From assembly GCA_963676915.2 (NCBI GenBank), contig CAXXVK010000043.1:236568-300567 (forward strand): DNA of 64,000 nt. Reading direction: 5' to 3'. This stretch comes from Myxococcota bacterium (GTDB taxonomy: Bacteria > Myxococcota_A > SURF-8 > G963663525). Positions 8,758 to 34,783 of this stretch are shown here, in pieces. The position numbers and the translations under genes were made by a program. Each line of letters begins with the position of its first letter. The first letter of the stretch is position 1. The notes under the pieces are model-generated. The model was not told where the DNA came from and did no database searches. It saw only the letters and a list, made by a program, of their open reading frames with translations.

Positions 8758-8959
8758 GGGTGCATCACAAAAAATAGCGACTTTCGTAAAATCCTATTTT
8801 TTCGTAGCGGCGAGGCGTAAGCCCGCCGTTTTTGCCTTTTGAAAGTTGCTTTTATGCCCCCAATTTCCCTTTTCGGCGGGCTTACGCCTCGCCGCTACAA
8901 CCAAATGAATGAATGCTTCAATATTATTGGGCCAATTCGCTACATTTTGTGATGCAACC
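8758..8959. mobile_element. MITE copy 2 (same family as 5667-5869)
   Basis: Same ends and internal GTAGCGGCGAGGCGTAAGCCCGCCG inverted pair. Flanking 9-bp direct repeat CCGTTCATA at 8749-8757 and 8960-8968. Confidence 0.85.
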
Positions 8960-9062
8960 CCGTTCATACTCTGCCAAAAACTTTCATTGCAGGACCGGCT
9001 TTTCCCGTGGTACGTTCGGACGCTTTGTGTGTTTTCGGGGTACTTTTTTCGGATCGAACGAG

Positions 9063-11348: not shown

Positions 11349-12490
<1,142 letters not shown>

Positions 12491-16112: not shown

Positions 16113-16577
16113 TCAGTCTTCGTCGGATTCCCTTCCCACGAAAAGAGTGAATTCCCCGACATCCGGCAGATCGAAAGCGATGGCGAATCGGTCGAGGTTT
16201 TCGGGAATGGATTCAATCGACGTATTGCCGGAGGTGGTGGAAGGGATCGTCAAGTCAAGTTGATGGTCCCGGAGAAATCCTTTGACGTTTCCCCCGATGA
16301 TGTTGATGACTTCTCCGATGGCGTCGCAGAGTTCTTCTTCTGTCACGGTTGATCCCTCTGCCAGAGTCGTTTCGACAATAATTTGGGCCGCTTCTCGGCT
16401 CAAGCATAAAGCGGTATGGATTTTCAGGTGTCCACCGACCAGATCCAGCGATGTGACGATGTGGGATGGATCGATTTCAAACGAGGCGTTAGGATCTTTT
16501 ACATCGGGTTCCACCTGCATCATGGTCATGAAGCAGTTTATCGTGGCTTGAATGAAAGGTCGTTTCAGGTCTTCCAT
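16113..16577 (-). CDS. cheX: Chemotaxis phosphatase CheX
   Basis: DAIGEVINIIGGN (E-x-x-N phosphatase motif) and LTIP. Last gene of the che operon. Confidence 0.85.
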   Translation of the reverse strand: MEDLKRPFIQATINCFMTMMQVEPDVKDPNASFEIDPSHIVTSLDLVGGHLKIHTALCLSREAAQIIVETTLAEGSTVTEEELCDAIGEVINIIGGNVKGFLRDHQLDLTIPSTTSGNTSIESIPENLDRFAIAFDLPDVGEFTLFVGRESDED

Positions 16578-16613
16578 GGTCGGGGATCTCCTTGGCCCGG
16601 TGATTGGTTGCAA

Positions 16614-16988
16614 TCAGGCTCCCATGCCCAGACATTCGGCGATTTTGCTGGCCAACTCTTCGGTGGTGAAAGGTTTCGTAATGTAATGTTGAGCGCCGGC
16701 TTTGATGGCTCGAACGATGCTTTGGCGTTCGGTGTCTGAGGTAACCATCATCACGGGGATGTGTTTCAATTTACTGTCTTGCTTGATTTTCGTAAGCAAG
16801 GTGAAGCCATCCATTACGGGCATGTTGATGTCGAGCGTGATTAGCTCGATACCCTCCGGATTGACTTGCAAAAACTCCAATGCCTGTAAACCGTTTTGAG
16901 CCTGAATCGTTTCGTATCCCAAAACGGCTGCGGCTTGCGAAATAAGTTTTCGCATCATGGAAGAGTCGTCTACTGCGAGCATTTTCAT
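16614..16988 (-). CDS. cheY: Response regulator CheY
   Basis: Stand-alone receiver domain: VDDS, LDINMPVMDG, MVT, KPF. Confidence 0.9.
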   Translation of the reverse strand: MKMLAVDDSSMMRKLISQAAAVLGYETIQAQNGLQALEFLQVNPEGIELITLDINMPVMDGFTLLTKIKQDSKLKHIPVMMVTSDTERQSIVRAIKAGAQHYITKPFTTEELASKIAECLGMGA

Positions 16989-17000
16989 CGTGTTCCCCTG

Positions 17001-17846
17001 TTACTGCAACCGATAATAGACAGCGGAATCATGGATATGGGTCTGAAAGGTTTCATTGTAGCCTCTCATTGTTTCTGCTGAACCCAGGAATAAATACCCG
17101 GGGGAGATCAGGCTTTTGGAGAGCTTATCAAAAAGTTCTCTTTTGAAGGAATCCGAGAAATAGATGGCAACGTTGCGGCATAGGATAACATCGAAACGGC
17201 CCAATCGTGCAAACTCTTTTTGCAAATTAAACTGTTCGAACGTCACCATTTTTCGCAATTCCTCGGAAATCACCCAAACCGGTCCTTGCTTCGTAAAATA
17301 GCGATTTGCATATTCTTCTCGCATTCCTCGATTCATCGAGATTCGGTTGTATCGGCCCGTTTTTGCAATGAACAGGGCCGAAGGGGAAATATCGGTAGCG
17401 TGAATCTGAAACTGGCCGGGATGTATTCCTTTAAAGGAGTTTTTTCGAACGGCCTGGTCGATCAACATGGCCAAGGAATACGGTTCTTGCCCCGTGGAAC
17501 AAGCGGCTGACCAGATTCGGACTTTGTACTTTTTGCCTTGGGACAAAAGGTCGATCATTTCCGGCAAAATCACTTCTTCAAAGACCTTGAACGGAGAATC
17601 GTCTCTAAACCACAGGGTCTCGTTCGTGGTCATGGCGTCGATGATTTTTTCGGTAAGTTTCGGATCGTTTTTTCTGACAATCAACTGATAAAACGATCCG
17701 AAATCTTCACAGCCGTTTTCCAGCATCAGAGTCGTCAGTCGGTTTTCGATAAGGTAGGATTTTTCCTCGCCCAATGAAATTCCGCACTGTTCCTCGATGT
17801 AGTCCCGTATGGGTTGGAATTCTTCTTTTTTCAAGGATACGCTCAT
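17001..17846 (-). CDS. cheR: Chemotaxis methyltransferase CheR
   Basis: TTNETLWFRD, WSAACSTGQEPYS, CRNVAIYF. Confidence 0.95.
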   Translation of the reverse strand: MSVSLKKEEFQPIRDYIEEQCGISLGEEKSYLIENRLTTLMLENGCEDFGSFYQLIVRKNDPKLTEKIIDAMTTNETLWFRDDSPFKVFEEVILPEMIDLLSQGKKYKVRIWSAACSTGQEPYSLAMLIDQAVRKNSFKGIHPGQFQIHATDISPSALFIAKTGRYNRISMNRGMREEYANRYFTKQGPVWVISEELRKMVTFEQFNLQKEFARLGRFDVILCRNVAIYFSDSFKRELFDKLSKSLISPGYLFLGSAETMRGYNETFQTHIHDSAVYYRLQ

Positions 17847-19078
17847 GGAACGTCTCCCGGATTTCGAACGAGTTGGGTGATTCGGTCTGCGATATCGCCC
17901 AGAGGCAGGCTTTCGTCGGAAAGTCCGGCACTGTCAATGGCTTGTGGCATACCGTACACGACACAGGTGTCTTCGCTTTGAGTCAAGCAATAACAGCCTT
18001 TCTTTTTGAGAGCTTGCACGCCGTTGAGACCATCCGCTCCCATGCCGGTCATGATCGTCGCCAGCACGTTGCCCCCATATTGAACCGCCATCGAGCGGAA
18101 CAGGACATCTACGGACGGACGGCAACTGTTTTCGGGCGGGTTCTCGTTCAAGCCGACCATATATTCCATCTTGCCGTTTTCCACTCTTTTTCGAATGGTC
18201 ATGTGTTTGCCACCCGGAGCCAGGTAAACGACGTTGGGTAGGATCGGACTATCTTCTTCAGCCTCACAGACCTTGATTTTCGATTTGTGGTTGAGGCTTT
18301 TTGCCAACGACGAAGTAAAAAGCGGAGGCATATGCTGAACGATCAAAACAGGGACACCAAGATTTTCCGGTAGTTTGGGAAGCAATTCGACCAGTGCGTT
18401 CGGACCGCCAGTGGAAATACCGATTCCCACCACTTCGAGTTTTTTCGGAATCGGGGCATAGGATAACCGGTGCCGATGAGGCTCCGCTGTAACGGGCGGT
18501 CGGGCAACGGCAGCGGGTCGAACGGGTTCGGGTTTCGGAGCTTTGGCTTTCGTGATTTTCCGGGTCTTTTCGAGAATGATTTTTCCCGATTCCTGAACCG
18601 CTGTGACTTTGCTCAGGATGATTTTTCCCGATTCTCTGATTTTTCGCAGATTTCGGCGGATGTTGAACTGTTTGATCAACCCGCCGAGTTGTCGGATCAA
18701 CTCATCCCGGTTTTGTTCCGGTGTGGCAAGACCCGGCTTGGTGATGAAGTCCAACGCGCCGCGTTCGAGTGCCTGCATGGTGATGTCGGCGGCGTCGAGG
18801 TTGATTCCACTGACCATCACCACACCGATATCCGGGTAACGACGAGCGATGCGCTCCATGGTTTCGAGACCGTTCATTACCGGCATTTCCACGTCCAGCA
18901 GGACGAAATCCACCGGAATCTGCTCGATTTTGGTCAGTGCGAGCTTGCCATGCGCAGCGACACCGACGACTTCGCATTCTCGAAAGGATTCCACCACTTC
19001 CCGAAGAATACGGCGATAGACCACAGAGTCATCAACAATAAGGATTTTCAACGGATCATTGGTCAACGTCGCCTCCAT
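17843..19078 (-). CDS. cheB: Chemotaxis methylesterase CheB
   Basis: Receiver domain plus GISTGGP, VQHMP, RPSVD, MTGMGADG. Confidence 0.95.
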   Translation of the reverse strand: MEATLTNDPLKILIVDDSVVYRRILREVVESFRECEVVGVAAHGKLALTKIEQIPVDFVLLDVEMPVMNGLETMERIARRYPDIGVVMVSGINLDAADITMQALERGALDFITKPGLATPEQNRDELIRQLGGLIKQFNIRRNLRKIRESGKIILSKVTAVQESGKIILEKTRKITKAKAPKPEPVRPAAVARPPVTAEPHRHRLSYAPIPKKLEVVGIGISTGGPNALVELLPKLPENLGVPVLIVQHMPPLFTSSLAKSLNHKSKIKVCEAEEDSPILPNVVYLAPGGKHMTIRKRVENGKMEYMVGLNENPPENSCRPSVDVLFRSMAVQYGGNVLATIMTGMGADGLNGVQALKKKGCYCLTQSEDTCVVYGMPQAIDSAGLSDESLPLGDIADRITQLVRNPGDVP

Positions 19079-19110: not shown

Positions 19111-21279
19111 TTAGACTGTGAAATCATCCAACGAGCGATGAAGCTGCGTGGAAATTTCCTTGAGAATATTCGAGGCTTCTCGGGTGTCTCCCGCGCCTTT
19201 TTCACTTTCTTTGGCCGCATTGCTGACACTTTCGACGCTGTGCGCGACTTCGTTCATGCCGTTGGCCGCTTCCGCCGAGCTATGCGAAATCTCCGAAGCG
19301 CCTCGGGCCAGTTCGGATACGTTTTTGGCAATTTCGTTCACGCCCATGGCCGCTTCCTGCACGTTGCGAGACACTTCATTGGCGCCTTTGGCGGCATGTT
19401 GCACGTTTTGGGCGACTTCGTTGGCTCCACGTGCGGTATTGCCGAGATTGTGTGAAATCTCGTTGGTGGTGGAGGTCTGTTCTTCCACGGCGGCGGCAAT
19501 CACCCCTGAAATCGAGTTGATCTCCGAAATTACCTGAACGATGTTGTTGATCGCCTCGATCGCGTTGTCCGAACTTTCCTGGATTTCTTCCACCTGGTCG
19601 CGGATGTCCTCGGTGGCCGAAGCGGTCTGTTTGGCCAGTTCCTTGACTTCGTTGGCTACGACCGCGAATCCTTTGCCTGCTTCACCGGCGGAGGCGGCTT
19701 CGATGGTGGCGTTGAGGGCCAGCAAGTTGGTCTGGGAGGCGATGCCTTTGATCATCTCCACGACTTTCCCAATGGATTTCGCGGACTTGCCGAGCTTGTC
19801 CATGATGCCCGATGCCATGGTTGCAGCACTTGTGGCGTCGTTGGCGATAGAGGCCGCTTCGCTGGAGTTCTTCGCGACTTCGTTCAGGGAGGCCGACATT
19901 TCTTCGATGGCCGTTGCCACCGAGTTGACGGAACCGGTCATTTCCTCTGTCGAACCGGCGATTTCACTCATGTTGGAGCTGATTTCCTCCACAGCGGCCC
20001 CAACCGTATCGAGATTCGCCGAGACTTCCTCGGACGACGAAGCGATGGTATTGGACTGTGCGCTGATCTCTTCGATGCCGACGGCAATCGTCTTGATGGA
20101 ACTGGAGGCTTCTTCCGTCGCGGCAGCAGCCGTATTGGCCATGTTGGTCACTTCTTCAGCTCCGCTAGCCATGTTATTGGCTGTGTTAAGTAATTCCTCG
20201 GAAGCTGCGGCAAGGCTGGTCGCCTGATTTTTGTTTTCCGTGACCGTTTCGTTAAGCTTTTTGGACATTTGGTTGAACTTGTCGCTGATCAAGTAGAAGA
20301 CCTTTGCGGCGACGAGTTCGTCATTGTCTTTGGCTTCGGTGGCGTCGTACTGGACGGTCAGGTCGCCATCGGCCATTTTTTCGAGAACTCCCAATAGACG
20401 GTCGGTTTCATTCGAGCGGTATGCAACCTGTTTGGCTTCGTAGTCCAGGATATTGTTGACTTTTTCGATGATGGAACGGAATTCGCCTTTATGGGCTTCC
20501 GCATCGGCGCGCTTGTCGTAGTCATTGGTGACGACAGCCTCGGCGAGTTCTCCGATATCCGTAGTGACTTGGATCAGATTGCCTCGGATCGTGTCGATGA
20601 TCTCGTTGAGAATGATCTGCTTGCCGGGAAGCTTTTCAATCGTCTGTTCGAAATCGCCGTCCGCGTAGAATTTGAGAAGGTCGATGATTTTCAAAATGAC
20701 GTTGATGTGGATTTTCATGCTGGTGTTGAAGCCATCCGCCATGGTGCCGTAAGCTCCGGGGAAGATATCGTCTTCGATGAATTTTTCGATATCTCCGGCA
20801 AGCTGTCCTTCGGTGACGCTTTCCATCTCCCCAAGAATGGCTCCCAGCATCTCCACGACCATCGCCATGTGGCCGTTGAGGTCGGTCAATCTTTCCTGCA
20901 CGCTTTGCAGAGCCGGATTGTCGATTTCTCCAACATCGATATCGATGTCCAGGTTGCCTTCCGCCAGGTTGCTAAGATTTCCGATGACCCTTTCCAACTC
21001 CGCTTCCAGGAACTGGATGGCTTTTTGCGCTTCGGCATCGCCTTCGGTGTCTTGAGCGGGAGTTTCCTGAGAGGAGAGGTCATCCAGCATTTTATTGAAC
21101 GAATTCACCAGCTTTTTATTTTTTGCTACGTAGCCTTTGACGTCGAGTCTGGCGGACAAATCGCCATCGTTGACTTGCTCAACGACTTTGATGAGGTCAT
21201 CGACGATACTTTTCTTGGGCAGTTTGACCTTTCCGTTTCCGGGAGAGGTTTCTTCTGGCATCGGGTGTTGATCGGTCAT
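19111..21279 (-). CDS. Cytoplasmic methyl-accepting chemotaxis protein with tandem HAMP-like domains
   Basis: Hairpin tip [34 protein letters not shown], repeated GDL/GDF HAMP motifs, no transmembrane segment. Confidence 0.92.
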
Positions 21280-21349: not shown

Positions 21350-21826
21350 TCAGTGTTCCGTTTTCAGCAACTCTTTTACGTTGATCGCCAGCAGGAGCTG
21401 ATGATCGAGCATCACCACGCCGGACAGGTATCTGCCGTCGATGTCGTTGATATTGGCGGGTGGCGGTTGAATGCGGCTGGAATCGACTTCGATCACATCG
21501 CCGATGGAATCGACGAGCAATCCTACCGTTTCCCAACCGCAATATAGATCATCCCGATTTTCTCTGGCTCGGATCGGTGCCAGTTCCTCTTCGGATTTCA
21601 AAATGATATTGTGCGCGTTCTCGGTGATTTTGCATGAACCAAGACCCAGTCGGTAACTGAGATCGAAGATCGTGACGATCTGACCGCGCAGGTTGATCAA
21701 TCCACGTATGTAATCCGGAGCTTTCTGAACGTAGGTGATGTCCATCTGCTGGTTGATTTCCCGAACGAGAAGGACTTCGATCCCGAAAAGCTGATCGCGG
21801 ACCTTAAAGGTAGTGTATAGCGTCAT
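21350..21826 (-). CDS. cheW: Chemotaxis adaptor CheW
   Basis: VREI, GLINLRGQIV, GLLVDSIGDV. Confidence 0.93.
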   Translation of the reverse strand: MTLYTTFKVRDQLFGIEVLLVREINQQMDITYVQKAPDYIRGLINLRGQIVTIFDLSYRLGLGSCKITENAHNIILKSEEELAPIRARENRDDLYCGWETVGLLVDSIGDVIEVDSSRIQPPPANINDIDGRYLSGVVMLDHQLLLAINVKELLKTEH

Positions 21827-24585
21827 AATGCCTCCCTGTCGCCAGCCTCGAAATCACAGGCAATTCCCGCCGATGCGAGGATTTCCTGGGGGCTGAGGAA
21901 AGAGGTGAGCTTGTCGTGAATAATGGCCGAACCTACCATGCCCGGCCCGTCGATCAGAGGAGGCTGCAATTCGACATCCACGTCCAAAGCATCGATGATG
22001 TTGGTTACGATGATGCCCGCCTGGGCTTGCTTTTTGCTGTCGCTTCCACCGCATTTGGGAATCAGCAGGAAAACGTCCTCGGTATCCTCGGGCATGGGAT
22101 CGACCGAGATGTATTCATCCAGACGGACGACCGGTAAGCCTTTTCCGAGGTAGTGAATGAAGGATTTCTGGCCCATCGTTCGAATGTCCGATTTGGCCAC
22201 ACGCTCCAACCGTAGGATTTTTTCCTGCTCGACGGCGAAAATCTCCTCGGGATTGTTGGTGAACATGATTACCGAGCGGATGCGGTCCTCTTGAAGCTTG
22301 GTTTCGGAATCGAATTTTTCCTTGCTGAGTTTGTCTTCTTCGATGAACTCGTTGAAGTTCAGTCTGGCTTTTGTGGCGATTCCCGCAGCATCGAGAATCA
22401 TGATGACGCTGCCGTCACCAAGAATCGTGGTTCCGGCGAACATCTTGATGTCTTTCAAGTAAGTGGACAACGGCTTGACCACGATTTCCTCACCATCGAA
22501 GAGCTTATCCACGATGATGCCGAACAGGTTCTGCCCATTTTTCAACACCAGGATGTTGCAGTCGCTGTGCCAGCTTTCCCGCCGATCGTCATCGTTTCGG
22601 CGGTTGGAGGAGTCTCCTGAGCGATCGAAATATTTCGGACCGCGTCGGTCGCCGATACGTTCGCGTCGGTCGACTTTCTCCTCGCCGGTTTCCGGGTCGA
22701 TGTACGTCCGTTCGATTCCCAGAACATCGGCCAGCCGGACCAGAGGGAGCAGTCGTCCCCGCAAACGGAGCACCGGAGCACCGCGGATGGTATCCATACG
22801 GTCGGCGAATTCGTGGGCGCGAACCCATACCAGCTCTTTGATACTGACTTGTGGAACCGCGAAACGGGAGTTTCCTACACCGATAATCAAGGACGGAATG
22901 ATGGCCAAGGTCAAAGGCAGACGCAAAAGGATGGTTGTGCCTTTGCCAAGTTCGGATTCCAACTCGATATGCCCGCCCAGTTTTTCGATGTTCGTCTTGA
23001 CGACATCCATTCCCACGCCGCGCCCGGAAATGTCAGAAACTTCCTTGGCTGTGGAAAAACCGGGAGCGAAAATCAGGTTGAGGATTTCCCGCTCGCCCAT
23101 TTTGTCCAATTGCTGCGAGTCGTACATTCCCCGTTCGATGGCTTTTTGCATCACTTTTCGTTTGTCGATGCCATTGCCGTCGTCGGAAATCGAAATGTTG
23201 ACCTGCCCGCCTTCATGGTATGCGACCAAATGGACGTGTCCGGTTTTCGGCTTGTGTTTGACCAGCCGTTCGTCTGGAAGTTCGATGGCATGATCCACAC
23301 AATTGCGGATGATGTGCGTCAAGGGATCGGAAAGCATTTCGACGATGGATTTGTCCAGTTCGACTTCGGCTCCCTGGATGTCCAATTTGATATCTTTTCC
23401 CAATTTTCGGGAAAGATCGCGAACAAGGCGGGGAAATTTGCCAAAGAGTACACCGACGGCCTGCATTCGCGTTTGCATGATGCCTTCTTGCAATTCGCTG
23501 GTCACACGATCGATGTTCTGCAAAATACCTAGCAATCCCGGTACGTTATCCACGACGTTTTCCAGGGCGCGCATCAACTGATTGCGTCCCAGCACCAATT
23601 CTCCGGCGGTGTTCATAAGCTGCGTGAGCAAATCCACTCGAACACGCAAGGTTTCTGCCACGTCGTGTTTCGATGCGCTGACGTTCTTTTTAGACTTGCT
23701 GGGTTTTTCCTCGATTTCTTTTGTGATTACAGAGGTTTCCGCCATGACCTCTTCTTTGTCTCGGACCATCCAGACGCGCATACTTTCCTTGGGAATCTGC
23801 TCGATGGTTACATCCGTGACCGACAGACCCGTGGGAAACATGTCCATGTCGAGAACGGAGGCTGCGCAGAACTCTTTCTTGTTTCCGGGAATGTCCCGCG
23901 AACCCAGCAATTTCCCCAATGATTTCAACTCTTCAGCCAACGCATCGGCTTGATCCGGGGTGCTTGTGGTAATCAGGAAAAAGAACATGCCATGGCGAAT
24001 GGCGTCTTCCAATGGAACGTGATCGATAGCGAATGAACTGATTTTGTCCATCCAATTGGTTTGGGCCGGATCGGTTTCTGGTTCTGTCACCGGTTCGGGT
24101 TTGTTTGCGGGTTCAGGTGCCGTTTCTTGTGCGATTTCAACACTTTGTTCCGCAGATTGTTTGGGTTCGGGAGCCTTGGCGGGAACATCTACCGGCAGAC
24201 CTTCCACAATTTGATTCAGTTGCCGGATTTCTTCCTGGCATTCGATATTGTCCGATTCCTGCACGTCGTCCAGCATCGCTCGGAGAACATCGACCGAACG
24301 CAGAAGAACGTCCATGATTTCCTGAGTGATTTGAAGCTTTTCGTTGCGAATCAACATCAGCACGTTTTCCATGGCGTGGCTGAGTTGCTTCAACGATTCG
24401 AGCGATAGGAACGACGATCCGCCTTTGATGGAATGGATAGCCCGAAAGACTCTGTTGACGATTTCCTTGGGAACATCGTTTTGCTGTTCTTCCAGGGTCA
24501 GCAGGTCCGGTTCGATGGCGTTGAGGTGATCGCGACATTCCGCCACGAAATCGCTCATCAGGCTTTCATCGGCATATTGGCTCAT
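21823..24585 (-). CDS. cheA: Chemotaxis histidine kinase CheA with two C-terminal CheW-like domains
   Basis: Hpt FRAIHSIKG, HATPase HIIRNCVDHAIE, DDGNG and SGRGVGMDVV, then PLTLAI and VVKPL. Confidence 0.96.
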   Translation of the reverse strand: MSQYADESLMSDFVAECRDHLNAIEPDLLTLEEQQNDVPKEIVNRVFRAIHSIKGGSSFLSLESLKQLSHAMENVLMLIRNEKLQITQEIMDVLLRSVDVLRAMLDDVQESDNIECQEEIRQLNQIVEGLPVDVPAKAPEPKQSAEQSVEIAQETAPEPANKPEPVTEPETDPAQTNWMDKISSFAIDHVPLEDAIRHGMFFFLITTSTPDQADALAEELKSLGKLLGSRDIPGNKKEFCAASVLDMDMFPTGLSVTDVTIEQIPKESMRVWMVRDKEEVMAETSVITKEIEEKPSKSKKNVSASKHDVAETLRVRVDLLTQLMNTAGELVLGRNQLMRALENVVDNVPGLLGILQNIDRVTSELQEGIMQTRMQAVGVLFGKFPRLVRDLSRKLGKDIKLDIQGAEVELDKSIVEMLSDPLTHIIRNCVDHAIELPDERLVKHKPKTGHVHLVAYHEGGQVNISISDDGNGIDKRKVMQKAIERGMYDSQQLDKMGEREILNLIFAPGFSTAKEVSDISGRGVGMDVVKTNIEKLGGHIELESELGKGTTILLRLPLTLAIIPSLIIGVGNSRFAVPQVSIKELVWVRAHEFADRMDTIRGAPVLRLRGRLLPLVRLADVLGIERTYIDPETGEEKVDRRERIGDRRGPKYFDRSGDSSNRRNDDDRRESWHSDCNILVLKNGQNLFGIIVDKLFDGEEIVVKPLSTYLKDIKMFAGTTILGDGSVIMILDAAGIATKARLNFNEFIEEDKLSKEKFDSETKLQEDRIRSVIMFTNNPEEIFAVEQEKILRLERVAKSDIRTMGQKSFIHYLGKGLPVVRLDEYISVDPMPEDTEDVFLLIPKCGGSDSKKQAQAGIIVTNIIDALDVDVELQPPLIDGPGMVGSAIIHDKLTSFLSPQEILASAGIACDFEAGDREAL

Positions 24586-24721
24586 GGTGTTTCCTCTTGC
24601 ATCCGGTACAATCGGCGGCTTTCGACATTGCTGGTCCGAGCCTAAAAGTTCTCATCTTAAATAACGGGAATTTATCGGGGAACTGAACTGCTCCCCGATA
24701 AAAATCCCTTCATAAGTCGGA

Positions 24722-25315
24722 TTAGACTGGAGTAATGATGAACTCTCCATAGTCGTCCCCGCATTCGATGCCTTTGACCTGCTCGCATTGGAAGGTTCCG
24801 TTGCCGTCCGGGTAGGGTTTGCCATACGCCAGATCCATGAACGCGGCGCAAACGCCTTGAATCATGTAGGCGGACGGCACCTTGGAGGCACCGAGTTCCA
24901 CGATGTCGGATTCGTAGTAGTCGTACGCTCTGACGACCATTTTCTTCTCGGGAACCAATTCCACGATTTCGGCTTTGGCCCAACCCCAGGCGGTGAACAC
25001 GGCGAAGGCACCATGCAGCACGTCTTCGGGGGCGTTTTCGATCATCGGTTCCACGACGGCTTTCCATTCCTCGCTGGTGATGATGCCGTACCCCGTGTTG
25101 TATCCGCAGGAATTCGCGGCGTTGTACAGCAGGTACTGTGCAGCTTCGAGCATGTCGGCGGAAACCGATTTTGTGATCAATTCCGAGAAGTTATTCCAGA
25201 ACGACGCCGGCAGTTGGTTGACGAGAACGTTGAAGCCGGGGATCAAACCGTCATCGTTGGATTGGACTTGAAGCTTCGACAGGGAGTCGATGATTTTCTT
25301 TCGATCGATGGCCAT
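24722..25315 (-). CDS. V4R (4-vinyl reductase-like) domain protein 2
   Basis: AWGWAKAEI, GVCAAFM and C-terminal CEQVKGIECGDDYGEFII match the V4R pattern. RBS AGGAG. Confidence 0.75.
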   Translation of the reverse strand: MAIDRKKIIDSLSKLQVQSNDDGLIPGFNVLVNQLPASFWNNFSELITKSVSADMLEAAQYLLYNAANSCGYNTGYGIITSEEWKAVVEPMIENAPEDVLHGAFAVFTAWGWAKAEIVELVPEKKMVVRAYDYYESDIVELGASKVPSAYMIQGVCAAFMDLAYGKPYPDGNGTFQCEQVKGIECGDDYGEFIITPV

Positions 25316-25330
25316 AGGTCACTCCTTTCC

Positions 25331-25867
25331 TTAAGCGCGAACGATGGCGAATTTGGAGGTTTCGGCACCGGAAACGATGCTCTGCACTTCGTTGACCTTG
25401 TAGCTTCCCATGGGAAGATCATAGATGGCCGCCATGGCCGCCGAAAGGTAGCCCTGGCCGACGAAGTTGACGGCTTTGTCCCGTTTGCCCCACTTTTTGA
25501 CCCAGCCTTCATCCACATGGCTGTGAGCCATTTCAGCGGTGGCGGACAGTTTGCCGACATGCTCGAAATGAAGCAGTCCCATGCCGCAGACTTTCCAGTA
25601 TTCCTCCGCAAGTGCCACACGCTCTACAAGCTCGTTGACCTGGTGCTTTTTGAAATAATCTTTCAGAACTTTGGTAAAGCTCAGTTCGGCGGCCTGACGC
25701 ATCAACCCCTTTCCATCCACCATTTCGGCATCATCCGCCAATTGGCAGTAAAGCGTAATGTAGTGGTGGCAGTGCAGGACCGTTACGGCATCGTTGTTGT
25801 AGTGACGTGTGGTTTTCGGGTCGAACCGATGATCGATCTCCCATTCCACTTTTTTGAATTTTGCCAT
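25331..25867 (-). CDS. V4R-like domain protein 1 with LHCHHY motif
   Basis: LHCHHY, GMG, GYLSAAMAA and V.EVQSIVSGAETSKF (degenerate V4R C-terminus). RBS AGGAGG. Confidence 0.65.
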   Translation of the reverse strand: MAKFKKVEWEIDHRFDPKTTRHYNNDAVTVLHCHHYITLYCQLADDAEMVDGKGLMRQAAELSFTKVLKDYFKKHQVNELVERVALAEEYWKVCGMGLLHFEHVGKLSATAEMAHSHVDEGWVKKWGKRDKAVNFVGQGYLSAAMAAIYDLPMGSYKVNEVQSIVSGAETSKFAIVRA

Positions 25868-25879
25868 AAGGAACCTCCT

Positions 25880-26071
25880 TTACAGTTTCGGGGCGTCGGC
25901 GCCCAGGACTTCTTTTGCAATTTCATAGGCTTTGGCGAGAACTTCCGGCGTGTCTTCCGCGTCACCTGCCTTATTGGAGGGAACGTTGGTTTTCATCGCC
26001 ATCCGCATTTTCGCCTTTAAGCCTCCTTTCGCTTCCACCAGTTCGTAATACTTCTTCAGTTTGTCTCCCAT
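25880..26071 (-). CDS. Small hypothetical protein (63 aa)
   Basis: RBS AAGGAG, helical sequence GGLKAKMRMAMKTNVPS, tightly packed in the operon. Confidence 0.8.
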   Translation of the reverse strand: MGDKLKKYYELVEAKGGLKAKMRMAMKTNVPSNKAGDAEDTPEVLAKAYEIAKEVLGADAPKL

Positions 26072-26363
26072 GGAGTTCTCCTTTCTCTATGAGTTGTTTC
26101 ACATCCTCCAAAATGGAAGATGCGGCGGTCCGGGATAGAGTTACCCGCATCGTGTTGTTGCCAAGCACTCCTTGAATGGTGCATATTTTTTGATAGGTAA
26201 GTTTGAAATAAGGTCTGGGAAAATCCTTGAAATATTCAAGGTTTCCAAAGTTGCCCAAGGTTAAAATCAAGCTTTCGTCAGCCGGTTGATCGAGAACGAT
26301 TTCCCGCATCAGATCTTCATCGAAGCAGTCTTCTACCGTTCGGATGTCGAGAACTCGTGTCAT
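25971..26363 (-). CDS. Hypothetical protein with EDCFD motif
   Basis: Start overlaps the desulfurase stop (ATGA). Core of about 100 aa (EDCFD, EYFKDFPRPYF, QGVLG). The last ~100 nt overlap the next gene, so the true 3' end is uncertain. Confidence 0.65.
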   Translation of the reverse strand: MTRVLDIRTVEDCFDEDLMREIVLDQPADESLILTLGNFGNLEYFKDFPRPYFKLTYQKICTIQGVLGNNTMRVTLSRTAASSILEDVKQLIEKGELHGRQTEEVLRTGGSERRLKGENADGDENQRSLQ

Positions 26364-27508
26364 GGTTTCACCAGCCTTTTCAGGGCGTCGGAAAACTCGA
26401 ACACCTCTTTTTCCGTATTGAAAGCGCTGACACTCGCACGGATGTTTCCGTCGGGGGCTGTTCCGATGGTGTCGTGAATCAGCGGTGCGCAATGCAGTCC
26501 GTGACGGGTTTCAAAGCCGAAGGATTCTGACAGGATGAACCCAAGTTCTTCCGGTGACCATCCCTTGGCCTGAAACGACACGACACCCGCCCGGCCGTCG
26601 GATTTGGCGAGAGGGGAGAGGGAAATCCCTTCGATTTCTTTGAGATTTTTCCGCATTAGCTGCACGAGAGTGTTTCGGTGTTTTCCCAAAGCACCTACAC
26701 CACGTTCCAGCACAAATTCGACTCCTGCCGCCAGCCCGGCGATCCCCGGAAGGTTGGGGGTTCCGGCTTCGTAACGAATCGGTAGCGAGGAAGGTTGCAG
26801 CAGGCTTTCGCTTTGAATACCGGTTCCTCCCGTCAGAACCGGTTCGAGACTGTTGTCCGGCAGGATCAGTCCACCGGTTCCCATCGGTCCGAAAAGCCCT
26901 TTGTGCCCGGCAAAAGCAACATATGTTTGTCCGGGAAGCTTTTCATAATTCAACTCGACGCTGCCCGCCGATTGCGCGGCATCGATCAGAAATGGAATTC
27001 GGTGCTTCGCTGCGATATCAGCGATTTCCTCAACCGGTTGGATGCAGCCGGTTACATTCGAAGCATGGGTGACTACGATCAGTCGAGTATCCGAGTCGAT
27101 AGATTCTTGTAAAGTCTTGGGGAGTACACGACCGTCTTTTTCCGGATTCAGGTAAACAATACGAGTTCCGAATCGTTGGCTGCCATGTTCGAGAGGGCGG
27201 ATAACTGAGTTGTGCTCAAGGCGTGTCGTAACGCAATTTCCACCGGGAGATTGCCGTAAGTACCCTGTAATGACTAGGTTTAAGGCAATCGTAGCCGAAG
27301 GTGTCAAAATAACTTGAGAGGGAGTGGGAACGTGAAAGAGAAGGGCTAGTCGTTTTCGACAGGGGAGGGTTGGATCTTGTTGTTGATGGGATCTACCTGG
27401 TTCACTTGGAGGCAACAGTAAACTCTGTCTGACTGCCTCTGTGACGCGCTTTGGCTTAGGAAAGCTGGTCGCAGCGTTATTCAGGTATATGAAGTGGCTC
27501 TGATCCAT
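26360..27508 (-). CDS. Cysteine desulfurase family protein (class V PLP enzyme, group II-like)
   Basis: YLNNAATSFPKP, EHNSV, THASNV, DAAQ, GHKG (PLP Lys), EAGTPN, RHGLHCAP (catalytic Cys). Confidence 0.9.
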   Translation of the reverse strand: MDQSHFIYLNNAATSFPKPKRVTEAVRQSLLLPPSEPGRSHQQQDPTLPCRKRLALLFHVPTPSQVILTPSATIALNLVITGYLRQSPGGNCVTTRLEHNSVIRPLEHGSQRFGTRIVYLNPEKDGRVLPKTLQESIDSDTRLIVVTHASNVTGCIQPVEEIADIAAKHRIPFLIDAAQSAGSVELNYEKLPGQTYVAFAGHKGLFGPMGTGGLILPDNSLEPVLTGGTGIQSESLLQPSSLPIRYEAGTPNLPGIAGLAAGVEFVLERGVGALGKHRNTLVQLMRKNLKEIEGISLSPLAKSDGRAGVVSFQAKGWSPEELGFILSESFGFETRHGLHCAPLIHDTIGTAPDGNIRASVSAFNTEKEVFEFSDALKRLVKP

Positions 27509-28312: not shown

Positions 28313-30427
28313 GTGAGGTCAATTATGCCGGAGATTTCGACAGGTGAATGGATTGCTTTTATCTTGATGTTCCTTGTGGGCATCGTCACGTTTCTGTACG
28401 TCGCCTATAGCCGAATTCAACTGCTGCTTCTGGCTCAGCCCGAAAATCGCTTCGACAACCTGCCCAAACGGGTGCTGTTGGCGATCAAGTACGGCTTCGG
28501 ACAGTACAAAATGCCGGATGAAGTCTCGGCGGGATTGTTGCACATCACGATTTTCGCGGGTTTCATGACCGTTTCCCTGCGGACCATCATGCTTTTTGCA
28601 CAAGGCTTGATCGGTGACTACCACTTCCATCTCTGGGTGTTGGGACCGGAGCAGCCGCTTGGCATGCTGTACGCTTTCGTCAAGGATTTCATCTCCTTGT
28701 TCGTCATCGTCGCCTGTTTTGGTTTCATGTACCGGCGGATGATCAGCAAGCCCGTACGGATGCAGAACATCGTGGTTTGGGAACCGGTCGTGATTCTCTT
28801 CTGGATCTCCGGCCTGATGCTGACGGACTTCTTCATTGAAGGCGCGTTGTTGCATGTGTCCAACGGTGGATTGACCTTCCTGCCAGCTCCCATCACCTAC
28901 ATTGCGGCGCATTTGATCAGCCCAGAATCCGTTACCGGATGGTTGAAGGTCAATTTCTGGATTCACACCGCGATGATCTTGATTTTCCTCAACTATCTCC
29001 CCTTCGGAAAGCACTTCCACGTGTTGACGGCTATCCCTAATATCTTCCTTGGACGCCTGGGCCCTCCGGGAAAAATCAAGTCCATCGACAACCTGGAAGA
29101 ACTGTTCGAGAAAATGGAAGAAGAAGAAGTGGTCATCGGCGTGGCCGAGCCGGAGCACTTCACCTGGAAAACCCTGCTTGACGTGTACACCTGCACCCAA
29201 TGTGGTCGTTGCGTGCCGTTTTGTCCGGCCTGGAGCACGGACAAACCCTTGAGCCTGCGGCAGGTGAATAAAGACATCCGCCACCATCTGATGGATAAAT
29301 CCGCTTATCTGCTGGAAACCAACGGCAAACCGAGTGGCGAGAAAAAGGAATGGGAACACGAACCCATGACCGGCACGACGTTGTCCACCGATACGATCTG
29401 GGCTTGCACGATGTGCCGCGACTGCGAAGAGCGTTGCCCGGTGTTGATCGAGCAGGTGTCGAAGATTACCGAAATGCGTCGTTATCTCAATATGATCGAG
29501 GGCAATATTCCCGACGAACTGACGCAGATGTTCCGTGGTCTGGAACGCAACTCCAACCCTTGGGGCTTGGGCTATGACCAGCGTGGCAAATGGATCGATG
29601 ACAACCCCGACTTGGGTGTCCAGCGTTTCGCCGAAGTGGAAAATCCCGAGGAAATCGAGTACTTGTTCTTCGTCGGTTGCATGGGTAGTTTCGATGATCG
29701 CTCCGTGCGCGTGTCCAAAGCGTTGTGCAAGATCATGAACGAAGCCGGAATCAAGTTTGCCGTATTGGGCGAAGAAGAACAATGCAGTGGTGATACCGCC
29801 CGCCGACTGGGTAACGAATATCTGGCCCAGATGCAGATGCAGATGAACCTCACCGCGATGAAAATGTACGGTGTAAAGAAAGTCGTCACCAACTGCCCGC
29901 ACTGCTTCAACACGCTGAAAAACGAGTATGCCGACATCATCGTAACGGATGAAGAAACCGAAGAAACCTTTAAGTATTCCTTCGATGAAGTCATCCACGG
30001 TCAGGTGCTTGTCAAACGTCTGCTGGACGAAGGCCGGATCTCGATCAATAGCGAAGCTTTGGGTGAGATCGCCTATCACGACAGTTGTTTCATGGGACGC
30101 TACAACGACATTTACGATGAGCCGCGCCAGTTGATCGAAGCCTGCGGCGGCAAAGTCGTTAACCCGAGCCTGCATCACAACCATTCGTTCTGCTGTGGCG
30201 CGGGCGGTGGCCGGATGTGGATGGAAGAAGAACAACCCCGCGTCAACGACAAACGCTTCAAAGAAATCATGGAAACCACGAACGATCCCGAACTGATCGG
30301 CGTGTCCTGTCCCTTCTGTATGACGATGATCACCGACGGCAGCAAGAATGCCAACCGTGACGAAGACGTGAAAATCAAGGACGTGATCGAACTCGTTGCC
30401 GACGCCCTCGTGGTCCGGGAAAAGTAG
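28313..30427 (+). CDS. Membrane-bound Fe-S oxidoreductase (FadF / EMO / HdrF-like)
   Basis: N-terminal TM helices with His (LLHITIFAGF, FWIH, PFGKHFH), CTQCGRC...CP, CTMCRDC...CP, and two CCG domains (FVGC, CSG, CPHC, YHDSC, CCGAGGG, CPFC). Alternative start at 28325. Confidence 0.9.
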   Translation: MRSIMPEISTGEWIAFILMFLVGIVTFLYVAYSRIQLLLLAQPENRFDNLPKRVLLAIKYGFGQYKMPDEVSAGLLHITIFAGFMTVSLRTIMLFAQGLIGDYHFHLWVLGPEQPLGMLYAFVKDFISLFVIVACFGFMYRRMISKPVRMQNIVVWEPVVILFWISGLMLTDFFIEGALLHVSNGGLTFLPAPITYIAAHLISPESVTGWLKVNFWIHTAMILIFLNYLPFGKHFHVLTAIPNIFLGRLGPPGKIKSIDNLEELFEKMEEEEVVIGVAEPEHFTWKTLLDVYTCTQCGRCVPFCPAWSTDKPLSLRQVNKDIRHHLMDKSAYLLETNGKPSGEKKEWEHEPMTGTTLSTDTIWACTMCRDCEERCPVLIEQVSKITEMRRYLNMIEGNIPDELTQMFRGLERNSNPWGLGYDQRGKWIDDNPDLGVQRFAEVENPEEIEYLFFVGCMGSFDDRSVRVSKALCKIMNEAGIKFAVLGEEEQCSGDTARRLGNEYLAQMQMQMNLTAMKMYGVKKVVTNCPHCFNTLKNEYADIIVTDEETEETFKYSFDEVIHGQVLVKRLLDEGRISINSEALGEIAYHDSCFMGRYNDIYDEPRQLIEACGGKVVNPSLHHNHSFCCGAGGGRMWMEEEQPRVNDKRFKEIMETTNDPELIGVSCPFCMTMITDGSKNANRDEDVKIKDVIELVADALVVREK

Positions 30428-32272: not shown

Positions 32273-32977
32273 CAGGCGTAAATCCACTGGTTGAGGACGT
32301 TGGCCAGTCCGTGAAAAAGGATCGGTGCGGCGACGCCGCCGGTTTTTGCACGCAGCCAGCCGAACACCAGCGATGGAAAGAACACGGCCAGCCGGAAAGG
32401 GTGCGGCGTCAGAGCGAGGTGTCCAACGGCGAACAGCAGGCTGGTCAGCACGATTCCCCACCCAATGGAAACTCCCAGGAACGAAAACCAGGGTTTGAAA
32501 TGTTTTTCGAATACCGGTTGCATCCAACCCCGGTAAAAAACCTCTTCCGGGAGGGCAACCACGAAAATTTGTGTCGCCAGTAGCAGAAGCAGGTTTTCTT
32601 TGGGGAAGGTAAAAGCGAAAGATTGCCCGAATCCGTAGCTGAACCAGCCGTGTGCGCCGAGAATGAACGGTGGGAAAATCACCAGCACCGCGAGCAGTCC
32701 CCAGCCGAGATCCCGAAACAGGTGTTTAACGTGCAATCCCCACGTCGCCAAAGTTCCTTGCGTCGGTCGATGAAAACGATCGGGAGGTAGACCATCGCTG
32801 CAAGCAGCAGAGATACACATATTCCTGCACTGCCGAGGGTAGCAGGTGGGCGGTAATCGCAATCGATAGGCTGATTCCTGCAAATGGCAGCAGAACGAGA
32901 CGCAATTCGGGAGGCGGTAGCTCCTCCCGTAGGGAACTTTCGGTTAAAACTGGCGGAGTCTCCGTCACCGCTTCCAC
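32260..32977 (-). CDS. CPBP glutamic intramembrane protease, myxosortase (MrtC)-like; one apparent frameshift near 32810
   Basis: VALPEEVFYRG, LFAVGH, RLAVFFPSLVFGWLR..TG, FHGLAN. The N-terminal part lies in another frame (32726-32977). Confidence 0.75.
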
Positions 32978-34481
32978 CGATCGAAAATCTCTAAAACCGT
33001 CTCGACCATTTTGTCTCGATTTACTTCCATCTGGGCGGGTTGATCTTTGCGCCAGGTTTCGTGATCCTCGATTTCACTGGATAATTCGGCCCCCATGCGA
33101 AGATCCTTGATCGAGATCCGACCGTTTTCGAATTCATTCGAACCCATGATGACCGCAACCGGACAGCCGCGTTGGTCGGCGTATTTCAACTGCTTTTTGA
33201 AATTTCCGCCGCCATGGAACATTTCCGCCCGGATGCCGTGACCACGCAGTTCGAACACCAGTTTCTGATATTCTTCCGTCAGCGATTTATCCATCGTCGT
33301 AATCAAGACCGGGGGTAGGGGGGCGTCCGTTTCTTTGGATTCGATCAACTTCAGTGCTTCGATCAATCGATCTACTCCGATGGAAGCGCCGGTAGCCGGG
33401 ACTTTCTCCCCGGTGAAGCGTTGAATCAAGGTATCGTAGCGTCCTCCGCCGCCGACCGAACCGAAACGGACGCTTCGGCCTTTTTCATCCACGGTTTCGA
33501 GAGTCAGCTCCGCTTCGAATACGGGGCCGGTATAATATCCCAGGCCACGGATGATCGTGGGGTCGAGTCCGACCCGTTCTTCGTCGTATCCCGCTGCGGT
33601 TAACAAGGCATCGATCTGGCGTAATTCGTCGATGCCTTCCGCACCGTTTTTTCGTGGATCCCACCTGTCGGTCCAGTGCTTCCAGAACTTCCGCACGGCT
33701 GGAAGCTTTCATGGAGAGGTCAAGGTAATCGAGGATCGGTCGGCGTTCGTCCGCTGTCAGTCCCGCACCCTTGATGAATGCGCCGGATTCGTCTTTGCGA
33801 CCATCGCCGAGCAGCAGCTCGACGCCCTGGCGTCCGAGGCGGTCGAGTTTGTCCAGTGTTCGCATGACGATCACTGCCACTTCGACGGGTTTTTCGTTGA
33901 TGAGGAGGGTTCGTCCTCCTTCGAGGGGAAGACCGGCTTTTTCGAGCAAGCCGTTGATAATTTTACGGTTGTTGACGTTCATGCGGTACCCGCCACGAGG
34001 CAGTCCGATGGCTTCGAAGGCATCGCACAGCGCACAGAGGATTTCTACATCCGCCGACATTTTCGCTGCGCCGACCGTGTCCAGATCGCATTGGGTGAAC
34101 TGGCGAAAACGGCCCGGTCCCGGTTTTCGTAGCGGCAGACCGTGCCGATCTGGTAGCGCCGGAAAGGAGTGGGAAGGTCACGGCGGTTGGCGGCGAACAT
34201 CCGGGAAAGCGGTGCGGTCAGGTCGTAGCGAAGCGCGATCCACTCCTCGTCATCGGGATTGCGAAAGGAAAACACGCCTTCTTCAGGGGTATCGGTATCC
34301 GCAGGTGTTTACCGAGCACGTCCAGGTATTCGATCAGCGGCGTTTCGAGAGGAATGAAGCCGTACAGGTCGTATACGCCACGAATCTGCGAAATCATTCG
34401 TTCGCGATCCACGACGCTTTGGCCCATTACATCTCGGAATCCTTTGACAAGTCTCGGTTTCAACCGCTTTTGCTTCGCCAT
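32965..34481 (-). CDS. hisS: Histidine-tRNA ligase; three apparent frameshifts (~34300, ~34125, ~33650)
   Basis: Consecutive fragments KGFRD/ETP, LRYDLTAPL, RQFTQCDLD, LDKLD, RGLGYYTG, GGGRYD.L, SIGVDR, KQLKYAD. Confidence 0.92.
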
Positions 34482-34783
34482 GCCGACCTCCCGTGCCAAG
34501 CTGATTTCTTTCAGGGATTATGCATTAAATGTCCTGACTGGCAATGAAAAGAATGCAGGAAAGTGGCCAATTTTACGTGGACTGGCTCTTGTTTGGAGGT
34601 TCGTTGATGGTTTCGTCGCTTTTTTTGAATGTACAGCTTTGGGTGGGAATTGTTCACAATCGGACCAAAGCTTGACAGATTCCGTCAAACCGCCAACAAT
34701 CGGAAAAAATCGTAACGATGCAAATCAATCGACATCCGATACGTCTAATGGAAAAAGCATCCATTTCATATGAGGCGAGAAAT

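Follow-up and report, generated by a model that had tools for sequence, protein, structure and literature searches.

A widespread gene cassette with a cysteine desulfurase and a pair of V4R-type proteins, and its association with chemoreceptors

Gene order at the locus

The 64,000-nucleotide stretch of DNA analyzed here (the window) comes from a Myxococcota bacterium (GenBank assembly GCA_963676915.2, contig CAXXVK010000043.1, positions 236,568 to 300,567 of the forward strand) whose genome, of 5.18 Mb in 74 contigs, is 90.8% complete. Five genes located between positions 24722 and 27508 encode a cysteine desulfurase, two small proteins (EDCFD and a 63-amino-acid protein) and two stand-alone proteins of V4R type (V4R1 and V4R2) and, on the evidence of sequence comparison, they are one copy of a widespread cassette that has no name. 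An earlier account of this DNA, referred to below as the sequence-only reading, had described the five genes as co-directional and running into a chemosensory operon with the order cheA-cheW-MCP-cheB-cheR-cheY-cheX (MCP, methyl-accepting chemotaxis protein), and this arrangement was confirmed by the open reading frames (ORFs), the sequence and Pfam searches. The features are the following (aa, amino acids):

26360-27508, minus strand: cysteine desulfurase, group-II-like class-V pyridoxal phosphate (PLP) enzyme, 382 aa (Pfam Aminotran_5)
25971-26363, minus strand: ORF of the EDCFD protein, 130 aa; conserved part of about 95 aa, roughly 26079-26363 (ORF and alignment)
25880-26071, minus strand: 63-aa protein (homologs; no family match)
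25331-25867, minus strand: V4R1, stand-alone, 178 aa, VLHCHHY at residues 30-36 (predicted fold)
24722-25315, minus strand: V4R2, 197 aa, Cys 70, 156, 177 and 185 (distant V4R1 paralog)
24671-24702, minus strand: 13-bp hairpin between V4R2 and cheA (RNA fold)
21823-24585, minus strand: CheA, 920 aa (Pfam Hpt, H-kinase_dim, HATPase_c and CheW)
21350-21826, minus strand: CheW (Pfam CheW, E 4.8e-28)
19111-21279, minus strand: poly-HAMP MCP, 722 aa (Pfam MCPsignal, HAMP_N3 and HAMP)
17843-19078, minus strand: CheB (Pfam CheB_methylest and Response_reg)
17001-17846, minus strand: CheR (Pfam CheR and CheR_N)
16614-16988, minus strand: CheY (Pfam Response_reg)
16113-16613, minus strand: CheX (Pfam CheX)

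The desulfurase and EDCFD genes meet in an ATGA overlap, the EDCFD ORF and the 63-aa gene overlap by 101 nucleotides (nt), an AAGGAG motif sits 7 nt ahead of the ATG of the 63-aa gene, and gaps of 12 and 15 nt separate this gene from V4R1 and V4R1 from V4R2, respectively. The tight coupling that had been described for the five genes holds, and it does not extend to the junction with cheA, which begins 136 nt after V4R2. This gap contains a stable hairpin (-45.4 kcal/mol, z -3.08, for the 151-nt region 24580-24730) that is not followed by a T-tract, and no terminator-like site was called there. The only genome of the same genus retains the hairpin with one A-T pair replaced by G-C and one change to G-U, both arms being altered (a comparison of two sequences only). 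The hairpin may constitute an element of RNA stability, processing or attenuation, and a possible effect is to adjust how much sensor is made relative to the Che proteins.

Conservation of the cassette and its chemoreceptor neighbors

A pattern scan of one genome per species yielded 118 confirmed relatives of V4R1, and the comparison was made with the best 80 loci. In every one of these, V4R1 and V4R2 are neighbors (in L080 V4R2 is cut by the contig end), with gaps mostly of 8-20 nt. By tblastn, V4R1 was detected in 80 loci, V4R2 in 79, the 63-aa gene in 64, EDCFD in 57 and the desulfurase in 50, and a profile search located EDCFD in one further locus (L028). In the subset of 46 loci where the cassette is flanked by 3 kb or more of sequence on each side (full flanks), all five genes are present in 27, the desulfurase alone is absent in 6, only the 63-aa gene accompanies the pair in 5, the pair stands alone in 3 and other combinations are seen in 5. 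Relative to the V4R pair, the position of the desulfurase varies (upstream, 38 loci; downstream, 9; opposite strand, 3), and EDCFD starts between -19 and +19 nt from the desulfurase end in 45 of 47 loci. Carriers belong to Planctomycetota, Desulfobacterota, Myxococcota, Gemmatimonadota, Verrucomicrobiota, Acidobacteriota, Armatimonadota, Zixibacteria, Ignavibacteria, Omnitrophota, spirochaetes and Synergistota, and they also include the cultured gammaproteobacterium Aliikangiella and an archaeal metagenome-assembled genome (MAG) of the Thermoplasmatales. Aliikangiella maris GXAS 306 (L044) and Desulfocicer vacuolatum DSM 3385 (L042) are two carriers available in culture. The occurrence of the same gene set in 80 loci over many phyla is far beyond chance, and the five genes that the sequence-only reading had singled out as a unit are conserved together across phyla and through rearrangements of their order.

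Among the kin of the window genome, the cassette was found in the single genome of the same genus, in three of eight genomes of the same order and, as a single weak match, among 21 of the same phylum. The same-genus genome retains the whole 12-gene order from desulfurase to CheX with 55-95% protein identity. One of the same-order genomes displays the arrangement MCP-desulfurase-EDCFD-V4R1-V4R2, with no che operon, plus a second cassette copy. This second copy (L119) has the order V4R1-V4R2-desulfurase, and tblastn finds neither EDCFD nor the 63-aa gene in it; in L121 (G062:C1:4943000-4962000), also from the same order, two tandem V4R1-V4R2 pairs are followed by a single desulfurase.

The neighbors of the cassette point mainly to chemoreceptors. 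When 1,435 crude ORFs of the 80 loci were clustered, only the five cassette genes and an MCP group were present in more than nine loci, antisense artefacts aside. An MCP signaling domain is encoded within 3 kb of the cassette in 28 of the 80 loci, on the same strand in 26, and the density of MCPs is 0.73 per 10 kb near the cassette vs 0.12 farther out in the same loci. All of the first 50 of the 80 carrier genomes encode MCPs, compared to 8 of 14 control genomes. Pfam analysis of the 91 immediate same-strand neighbors of at least 120 aa identified MCP in 23, HAMP in 7, PAS_4 in 5, receiver domains in 5, DUF3034 in 4, SpoIIE in 3 and HATPase_c in 3. The five genes are thus linked to signaling outputs (an MCP in 28/80 loci and 23/91 neighbors), as had been anticipated. 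The suggestion that the cassette heads a chemosensory operon applies to the window, to its genus and to few other loci; che genes are found by the cassette on the same strand in L022 and L052, divergently in L029 and in part in the archaeal L028. The common layout is a cassette beside a single MCP, and the operon-head position is a local variant of a general cassette-chemoreceptor pairing.

A gene of about 319 aa with a signal-peptide-like start, probably a member of DUF3034 judging from the Pfam matches of the neighbors, was observed near some cassettes (L017, L019, L073 and L003). In L017 it occupies positions 8772-9731, between EDCFD and the 63-aa gene, and L019 and L073 have a gap of similar size at this point. 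An ORF cluster of this size recurs in 5 loci.

A crude hydropathy scan of the 28 cassette-adjacent MCPs distinguished 12 with a tight two-helix hairpin, 4 other membrane proteins without a large loop and 3 soluble proteins, together 19 of the 28 that are devoid of a periplasmic-size loop, as well as 2 truncated proteins. The window MCP can be aligned over its residues 94-236 with the Aer2 poly-HAMP structure (3LNR, E 6.6e-10). The proposal that this receptor lacks its own sensor agrees with the Pfam results, which include HAMP and signaling domains only, with no PAS or other sensor domain among the matches at E up to 0.01. The same type of scan found its sole hydrophobic stretch at residue 580, inside the signaling domain, and this was taken as a false positive. 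By its domain composition and this crude scan, the window MCP is a soluble, Aer2-like poly-HAMP chemoreceptor. Two CheA genes are present in this genome, one in the window and the other on contig C60, clustered with several MCPs. The arrangement is reminiscent of Aer2 (McpB) and the Che2 system of Pseudomonas aeruginosa, in which a soluble poly-HAMP receptor is encoded within a second che cluster (cheA, cheW, cheB, cheR). Aer2 bears its own haem-PAS sensor between HAMP units, whereas the window MCP has no PAS domain and the candidate sensor is encoded separately upstream.

The V4R pair, the desulfurase and the small proteins

No match to an NCBIfam model was obtained with the window copies of V4R1 and V4R2, nor any to Pfam V4R when E values as high as 10 were allowed, and therefore the V4R label of these proteins comes from their fold and their relatives. 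A first search with V4R1 gave 205 relatives at E ≤1e-3, some of which were named "predicted hydrocarbon binding protein" by the Joint Genome Institute (JGI). Pfam V4R (PF02830) is carried by one of the 120 V4R1 relatives listed; in smaller sets it was matched by 3 of 24 V4R1 relatives (best E 3.6e-6) and 1 of 26 V4R2 relatives (E 0.068). Profile searches against PDB sequences returned nothing meaningful (best E 0.36 for V4R1, none for V4R2). The AlphaFold model of V4R1 (predicted local distance difference test, pLDDT, 92.6) was compared with known structures using Foldseek, and its best matches are the sensor domains of PoxR, MopR and DmpR (E 6e-8 to 1e-6, TMq 0.71-0.76, about 175 columns), followed by weaker matches to the V4R protein MJ1460 (2OSD/2OSO, E 4e-4 to 1.4e-3) and to TRAPP subunits of the Bet3 family (E 2e-4 to 9e-3). 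H-NOX and V4R belong to one Pfam clan; H-NOX is absent among the Foldseek matches listed for V4R1.

On the basis of hhalign (E 3.3e-4, probability 38%), Atlas features and fused relatives, V4R2 is a distant paralog of V4R1. The Atlas cluster ranked first for V4R2 (score 0.97) bears the automatic name "putative 4-vinyl reductase". V4R2 is highly conserved, with 55-74% identity across phyla and a mean column identity of 68% (alignment A2). Two motifs stand out in V4R1, H32-C33-H34-H35 and S116-H117-x-D119-E120-G-W122; H32, C33, H34, H35, D119 and W122 are present in 80/80 sequences and H117 and E120 in 77/80, and the C-terminal half has no Cys. In V4R2, C70 is found in 79/79 sequences, E69 in 76/79, H73 in 73/79, C177 in 75/79 and E184 in 78/79. 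Of the potential metal ligands noticed in the sequence-only reading, LHCHHY in V4R1 and four Cys in V4R2, the HCHH residues and C70 are invariant and C177 is mostly kept, and C156 (25/79) and C185 (42/79) vary. C177 and E184, near the C-terminus, may correspond in position to part of the Cys/Glu zinc site of MopR. The V4R cysteines are invariant also in carriers without EDCFD.

Several observations argue that the two proteins work as one unit. Six natural V4R1-V4R2 fusions of about 390-405 aa were found; in one of them (P0121) the N-terminal half is 44% identical to V4R1 and the C-terminal half 58% identical to V4R2. Complex prediction from unpaired alignments gave an ipSAE (interaction prediction score from aligned errors) of 0.94 in all three runs, with 0.01 for the best control; solved structures of Bet3-family heterodimers or of MopR/PoxR dimers may have contributed to this value. 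Between runs, 98% or more of the contacts agree, the pLDDT of the partner is 91 or higher, and in a benchmark 58 of 80 solved complexes and 2 of 110 mismatched pairs attained the V4R1-V4R2 mark. The predicted interface comprises V4R1 residues 27-37, 114-117 and 120-121 and V4R2 residues 66-71, which are the segments holding the invariant Cys/His residues. V4R1 and V4R2 are thus predicted to form a heterodimer, and the heteromer postulated beforehand gains support from both the complex prediction and the natural fusions.

A whole-library profile search with V4R2 collected 283 representative clusters at E ≤1e-3. Many of the proteins are about 390-430 aa long and resemble V4R2 in their C-terminal half. 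Out of ten fused relatives scanned, 7 match Pfam V4R in either half and one reaches the cut-off (31.9 vs 31 bits), and these proteins therefore bridge both halves, V4R1 and V4R2, to V4R. The wider family that fuses V4R1-like and V4R2-like parts carries HC[HN]HYN, with HCHH in 33 of 57 fused-length representatives, and its distant loci include Coleofasciculus, Nannocystis, Bacteriovoracaceae and Ca. Uabimicrobium.

The closest structural parallels are the A domains of MopR, PoxR and DmpR (XylR_N plus V4R), which have the same fold as V4R1 and are likewise cytoplasmic. These sensor domains form dimers, a parallel to the predicted V4R1-V4R2 heterodimer. In contrast to them, V4R1 and V4R2 are stand-alone proteins with no fused AAA+ or DNA-binding output, the predicted dimer is a heterodimer of distant paralogs with a 63-aa partner, sequence identity is only 12-15%, and the pair has the invariant HCHH and H-x-DE residues and is linked to a desulfurase and chemoreceptors instead of aromatic catabolism. 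The TRAPP pairs Bet3-Trs33 and Bet3-Trs31 also have a related alpha/beta fold and form heterodimers of paralogous subunits; however, they act in eukaryotic/Asgard vesicle tethering, their match is far weaker than that of MopR/PoxR and they have no desulfurase or chemotaxis link.

The desulfurase matches Aminotran_5 across the whole model (E 5.9e-67) and, among NCBIfam models, it scores best by far with TIGR01977 (367.9 bits), narrowly missing the cut-off of 377; the values for SclA, the SufS subfamily and NifS/IscS are 270.7, 213.3 and 84-101 bits, respectively. It contains the PLP lysine K203 (GHK, 201-203) and the active-site C340 (HCA, 339-341), and both motifs are retained in 47 of 50 desulfurase homologs linked to V4R pairs. 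"Group II-like", as it had been called, is a fair description by its model scores. A role as selenocysteine lyase SclA (NF040779) was considered and rejected; the score of 270.7 bits compares with a cut-off of 525, and the sole above-cut-off SelD is on contig C52. The other strong class-V enzyme of the genome is a NifS encoded beside NifU on contig C27 (L081:493-2595), both above curated cut-offs, and the cassette desulfurase is therefore an additional, dedicated-looking paralog. No SufBCD or SufBD was found in the window genome assembly, whose housekeeping Fe-S system appears to be the NifU-NifS pair. The observation that no isc, suf or selenium genes are adjacent to the cassette was reproduced among the neighbors scanned.

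The two small proteins gave no match in Pfam or in NCBIfam. Ten related loci translated in three frames, together with alignment A3, showed that the EDCFD family is about 95 aa long; the frame of the relatives ends at or just past the start codon of the 63-aa gene, and residues 96-130 (approximately) of the window ORF are an unconserved out-of-frame read through that gene. The EDCFD gene proposed in the sequence-only reading is hence real, with only the first 95 or so of its 130 residues conserved. C13, F48, P51 and G65 are invariant in A3, and C13 is retained in 48/48 sequences. The predicted structure (pLDDT 83) consists of a six-stranded sheet and a long C-terminal helix. In VIA-align the top match is TBP (Z 9.1, root-mean-square deviation (rmsd) 2.8, 93 aligned residues), followed by many unrelated proteins at Z 5-7; the NFU1 N-domain (Z 5.5, rmsd 2.8, 74 aligned) falls within this background range. 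An Atlas look-up gave unnamed clusters only (score 0.91). Selenocysteine at the conserved Cys of EDCFD was also considered, and the in-frame TGA of L011 turned out to be a plain stop codon at residue 93.

Homologs of the 63-aa protein were also found in 8 of 9 further loci inspected by eye, overlapping the EDCFD ORF, and they have the conserved pattern MG.KL...GG...MRLAMKT..PS..A...PDSPEN. This protein is probably a third subunit or partner of V4R1-V4R2.

The combination of a group-II-like desulfurase and a translationally coupled small protein with one invariant Cys resembles SufS-SufE and CsdA-CsdE. Unlike these systems, EDCFD matches no SufE, CsdE, TusA or SufU model, its predicted fold shows no clear kinship to a known one, sulfur would presumably be accepted by a V4R pair that looks like a sensor, and no SufBCD was found in the genome.

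Proposed role and alternative explanations

Based on the conservation of the genes and their order, the fold of V4R1, the natural fusions, the invariant residues and the enrichment of MCP neighbors, it can be hypothesized that the cassette encodes a cofactor- or persulfide-bearing heterodimeric V4R sensor that feeds chemoreceptors, a reading to which we assign a probability of about 45%. Its core would be a cytoplasmic V4R1-V4R2 heterodimer, probably with the 63-aa protein, similar to the dimer through which the phenol sensors MopR and PoxR sense their ligand and distinguished by a site at the predicted interface composed of H32-C33-H34-H35, H117, D119 and E120 of V4R1 and C70 of V4R2. The dedicated group-II-type desulfurase would draw sulfur from cysteine and hand it on to C13 of EDCFD which, in most lineages, would load or modify the V4R site, either with a metal-sulfur center or as a cysteine persulfide. 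The loaded complex would then contact a chemoreceptor and report to it a redox, gas or sulfur-related state; in the window genome this role would fall to the soluble Aer2-like poly-HAMP MCP that lacks a sensor domain and belongs to a second Che pathway. Separate sensors that signal through receptors with little or no sensor of their own are also known in the sensory rhodopsin-Htr and binding protein-MCP systems. In contrast to these systems, the V4R heterodimer proposed as sensor would be soluble and cytoplasmic and would be served by its own enzyme for sulfur donation.

A more specific version, put forward tentatively, is less likely than not. The cassette would define a new class of cytoplasmic chemosensors, distributed in many phyla and at least one archaeon, in which a V4R heterodimer with a 63-aa subunit holds an unusual sulfur center at its interface and transmits redox, gas or sulfide signals in trans to sensorless chemoreceptors; the center would be either a metal-sulfur site with His and Cys ligands or a persulfide or polysulfide between the subunits, installed by the cassette's own desulfurase and a carrier of new fold. 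The sequence-only reading knew of no described pathway with such a layout, which agrees with our literature search, in which none was found as judged by titles and abstracts, subscription journals not being covered.

Many chemoreceptors have no recognizable sensor domain, which raises the question of what they detect. The cassette, present in at least 80 species-level genomes, offers a concrete candidate in the form of a cytoplasmic sensor that would be encoded apart from the receptor, along with the enzymes for its maturation. If the proposal is true, the V4R/MopR fold would be extended from hydrocarbon-responsive transcription factors to chemotaxis, cysteine desulfurases would gain a new target and a new small carrier protein, and four unannotated protein families would obtain a working name and a hypothesis.

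A number of observations weigh against the proposed sensor. Concerning the output, an MCP is nearby in only 28 of 80 loci (17 of the 46 with full flanks), and signaling proteins of other kinds are also found among the 91 neighbors, with 5 response regulators, 3 SpoIIE phosphatases and 3 histidine kinases. Seven of the 28 adjacent MCPs have a periplasmic-size loop and may therefore have their own sensor, and when the first 130 residues of 13 short MCPs beside the cassette were compared, only 5 of 78 pairs proved similar, which means that a common docking domain is not apparent. Beyond the window genus, the complete che-operon layout occurs in just a few loci, and in the window itself the junction between V4R2 and cheA is not tight and holds a stable hairpin. 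Concerning the sulfur relay, the predicted fold of EDCFD has no clear match to a known sulfur carrier (best Foldseek E 0.02). The 21 carrier genomes whose V4R locus gave no clean EDCFD match were examined by profile search; 4 gave a match, in L011 and L028 with the gene in the V4R locus, and in the other 17, mostly Desulfobacterota MAGs of uncertain completeness, no EDCFD was found anywhere in the assembly, implying that the V4R core works without a dedicated relay in some lineages. A dedicated sulfur relay, hypothesized in the sequence-only reading, is accordingly not universal. With respect to the V4R proteins, the window V4R2 departs from the consensus on both sides of C70, with S69 and N73 where most relatives have E and H, and the complex prediction was made with unpaired alignments and possibly benefits from solved structures of the same fold. 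In 18 loci of distant fused relatives neither MCP, EDCFD nor the 63-aa gene is adjacent and a class-V enzyme is nearby in only 3; the wider fused family is thus found outside the cassette context.

One alternative is that the V4R pair is a receptor for small organic ligands similar to MopR, in which Cys and His hold a structural metal and the desulfurase and EDCFD serve elsewhere or aid only in the assembly of the metal site, so that the signal would have nothing to do with sulfur chemistry. This explanation, which we judge unlikely, would account for the best structural matches being the ligand-bound phenol domains of PoxR, MopR and DmpR, for the JGI label of some relatives, for the core without EDCFD in 17 of the 21 genomes tested and for the partly kept C-terminal Cys/Glu pattern of V4R2 (C177 in 75/79, E184 in 78/79). 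It is less easily reconciled with the linkage of the desulfurase, maintained through three gene orders in 50 of 80 loci, and with an identity to MopR/PoxR of just 12-15%. Moreover, the invariant HCHH is N-terminal in V4R1 (32-35), whose C-terminal half has no Cys, and a mean column identity of 68% in V4R2 would be unusual for a receptor of variable ligands.

The desulfurase could also act within the sensing path itself. In such a case, the supply of cysteine or sulfane sulfur would set the persulfidation of EDCFD C13 and then of V4R C33/C70, this state would be the signal and the outcome would be metabolism-dependent taxis that follows the sulfur or cysteine status of the cell. Consistent with it are the single invariant Cys on each of EDCFD, V4R1 and V4R2, the translational coupling of desulfurase and EDCFD, the presence of this desulfurase in addition to NifU-NifS and the link to MCPs. 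However, 17 of the 21 tested carriers are without EDCFD and retain the V4R cysteines, a poor fit, and the invariant site, rich in His and acidic residues (HCHH, H117, D119 and E120), would seem more like a metal or cofactor site than a persulfide acceptor. Altogether, a relay that is itself the input appears quite improbable.

There is a slim chance that the cassette is no sensor and has a metabolic or cofactor-handling role, for instance the carriage or modification of a sulfur-containing or tetrapyrrole-like molecule, and that MCPs adjoin it only through co-regulation of taxis with this metabolism. The very high conservation of V4R2 is enzyme-like, 52 of the 80 loci have no MCP inside 3 kb, and V4R proteins such as BchJ are tied to pigment metabolism. 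In Synechocystis, the Slr0144-Slr0149 proteins combine V4R, bilin-binding and 2Fe-2S domains and are involved in photosystem repair (PMC9880817), a combination that would also suit a metabolic role. Conversely, no metabolic family recurs by the cassette among the 1,435 ORFs clustered from the 80 loci, the recurring neighbors are signaling proteins and 50 of 50 carriers tested have MCPs.

Finally, it is very improbable that the cassette and the che operon of the window are separate transcription units arranged head to tail with no functional link, as the 136-nt gap with its hairpin ahead of cheA and the absence of a full che operon beside the cassette at most other loci might indicate, given the identical 12-gene order in the same-genus genome at 55-95% protein identity, the enrichment of MCPs by the cassette across phyla and the lack of a called terminator-like site in the gap.

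Other features of the window lie outside the cassette and the che operon. Upstream of the desulfurase gene, an AT-rich spacer of about 800 bp separates it from a divergent gene (28313-30427, plus strand) encoding a 704-aa protein with two Cys-rich CCG domains and 4Fe-4S dicluster motifs, HdrD/DsrK-like. At 32965-34499 on the minus strand there is a gene that we take, from motifs in its translations, to be histidyl-tRNA synthetase- or HisZ-like. It is broken across at least three overlapping ORFs (32965-33696, 33485-34060 and 34218-34499), a split that could be due to frameshifts or assembly errors. About 4 kb past the end of the che operon, an IS110-family transposase (DEDD_Tnp_IS110 and Transposase_20) is encoded at 11349-12314 on the minus strand.

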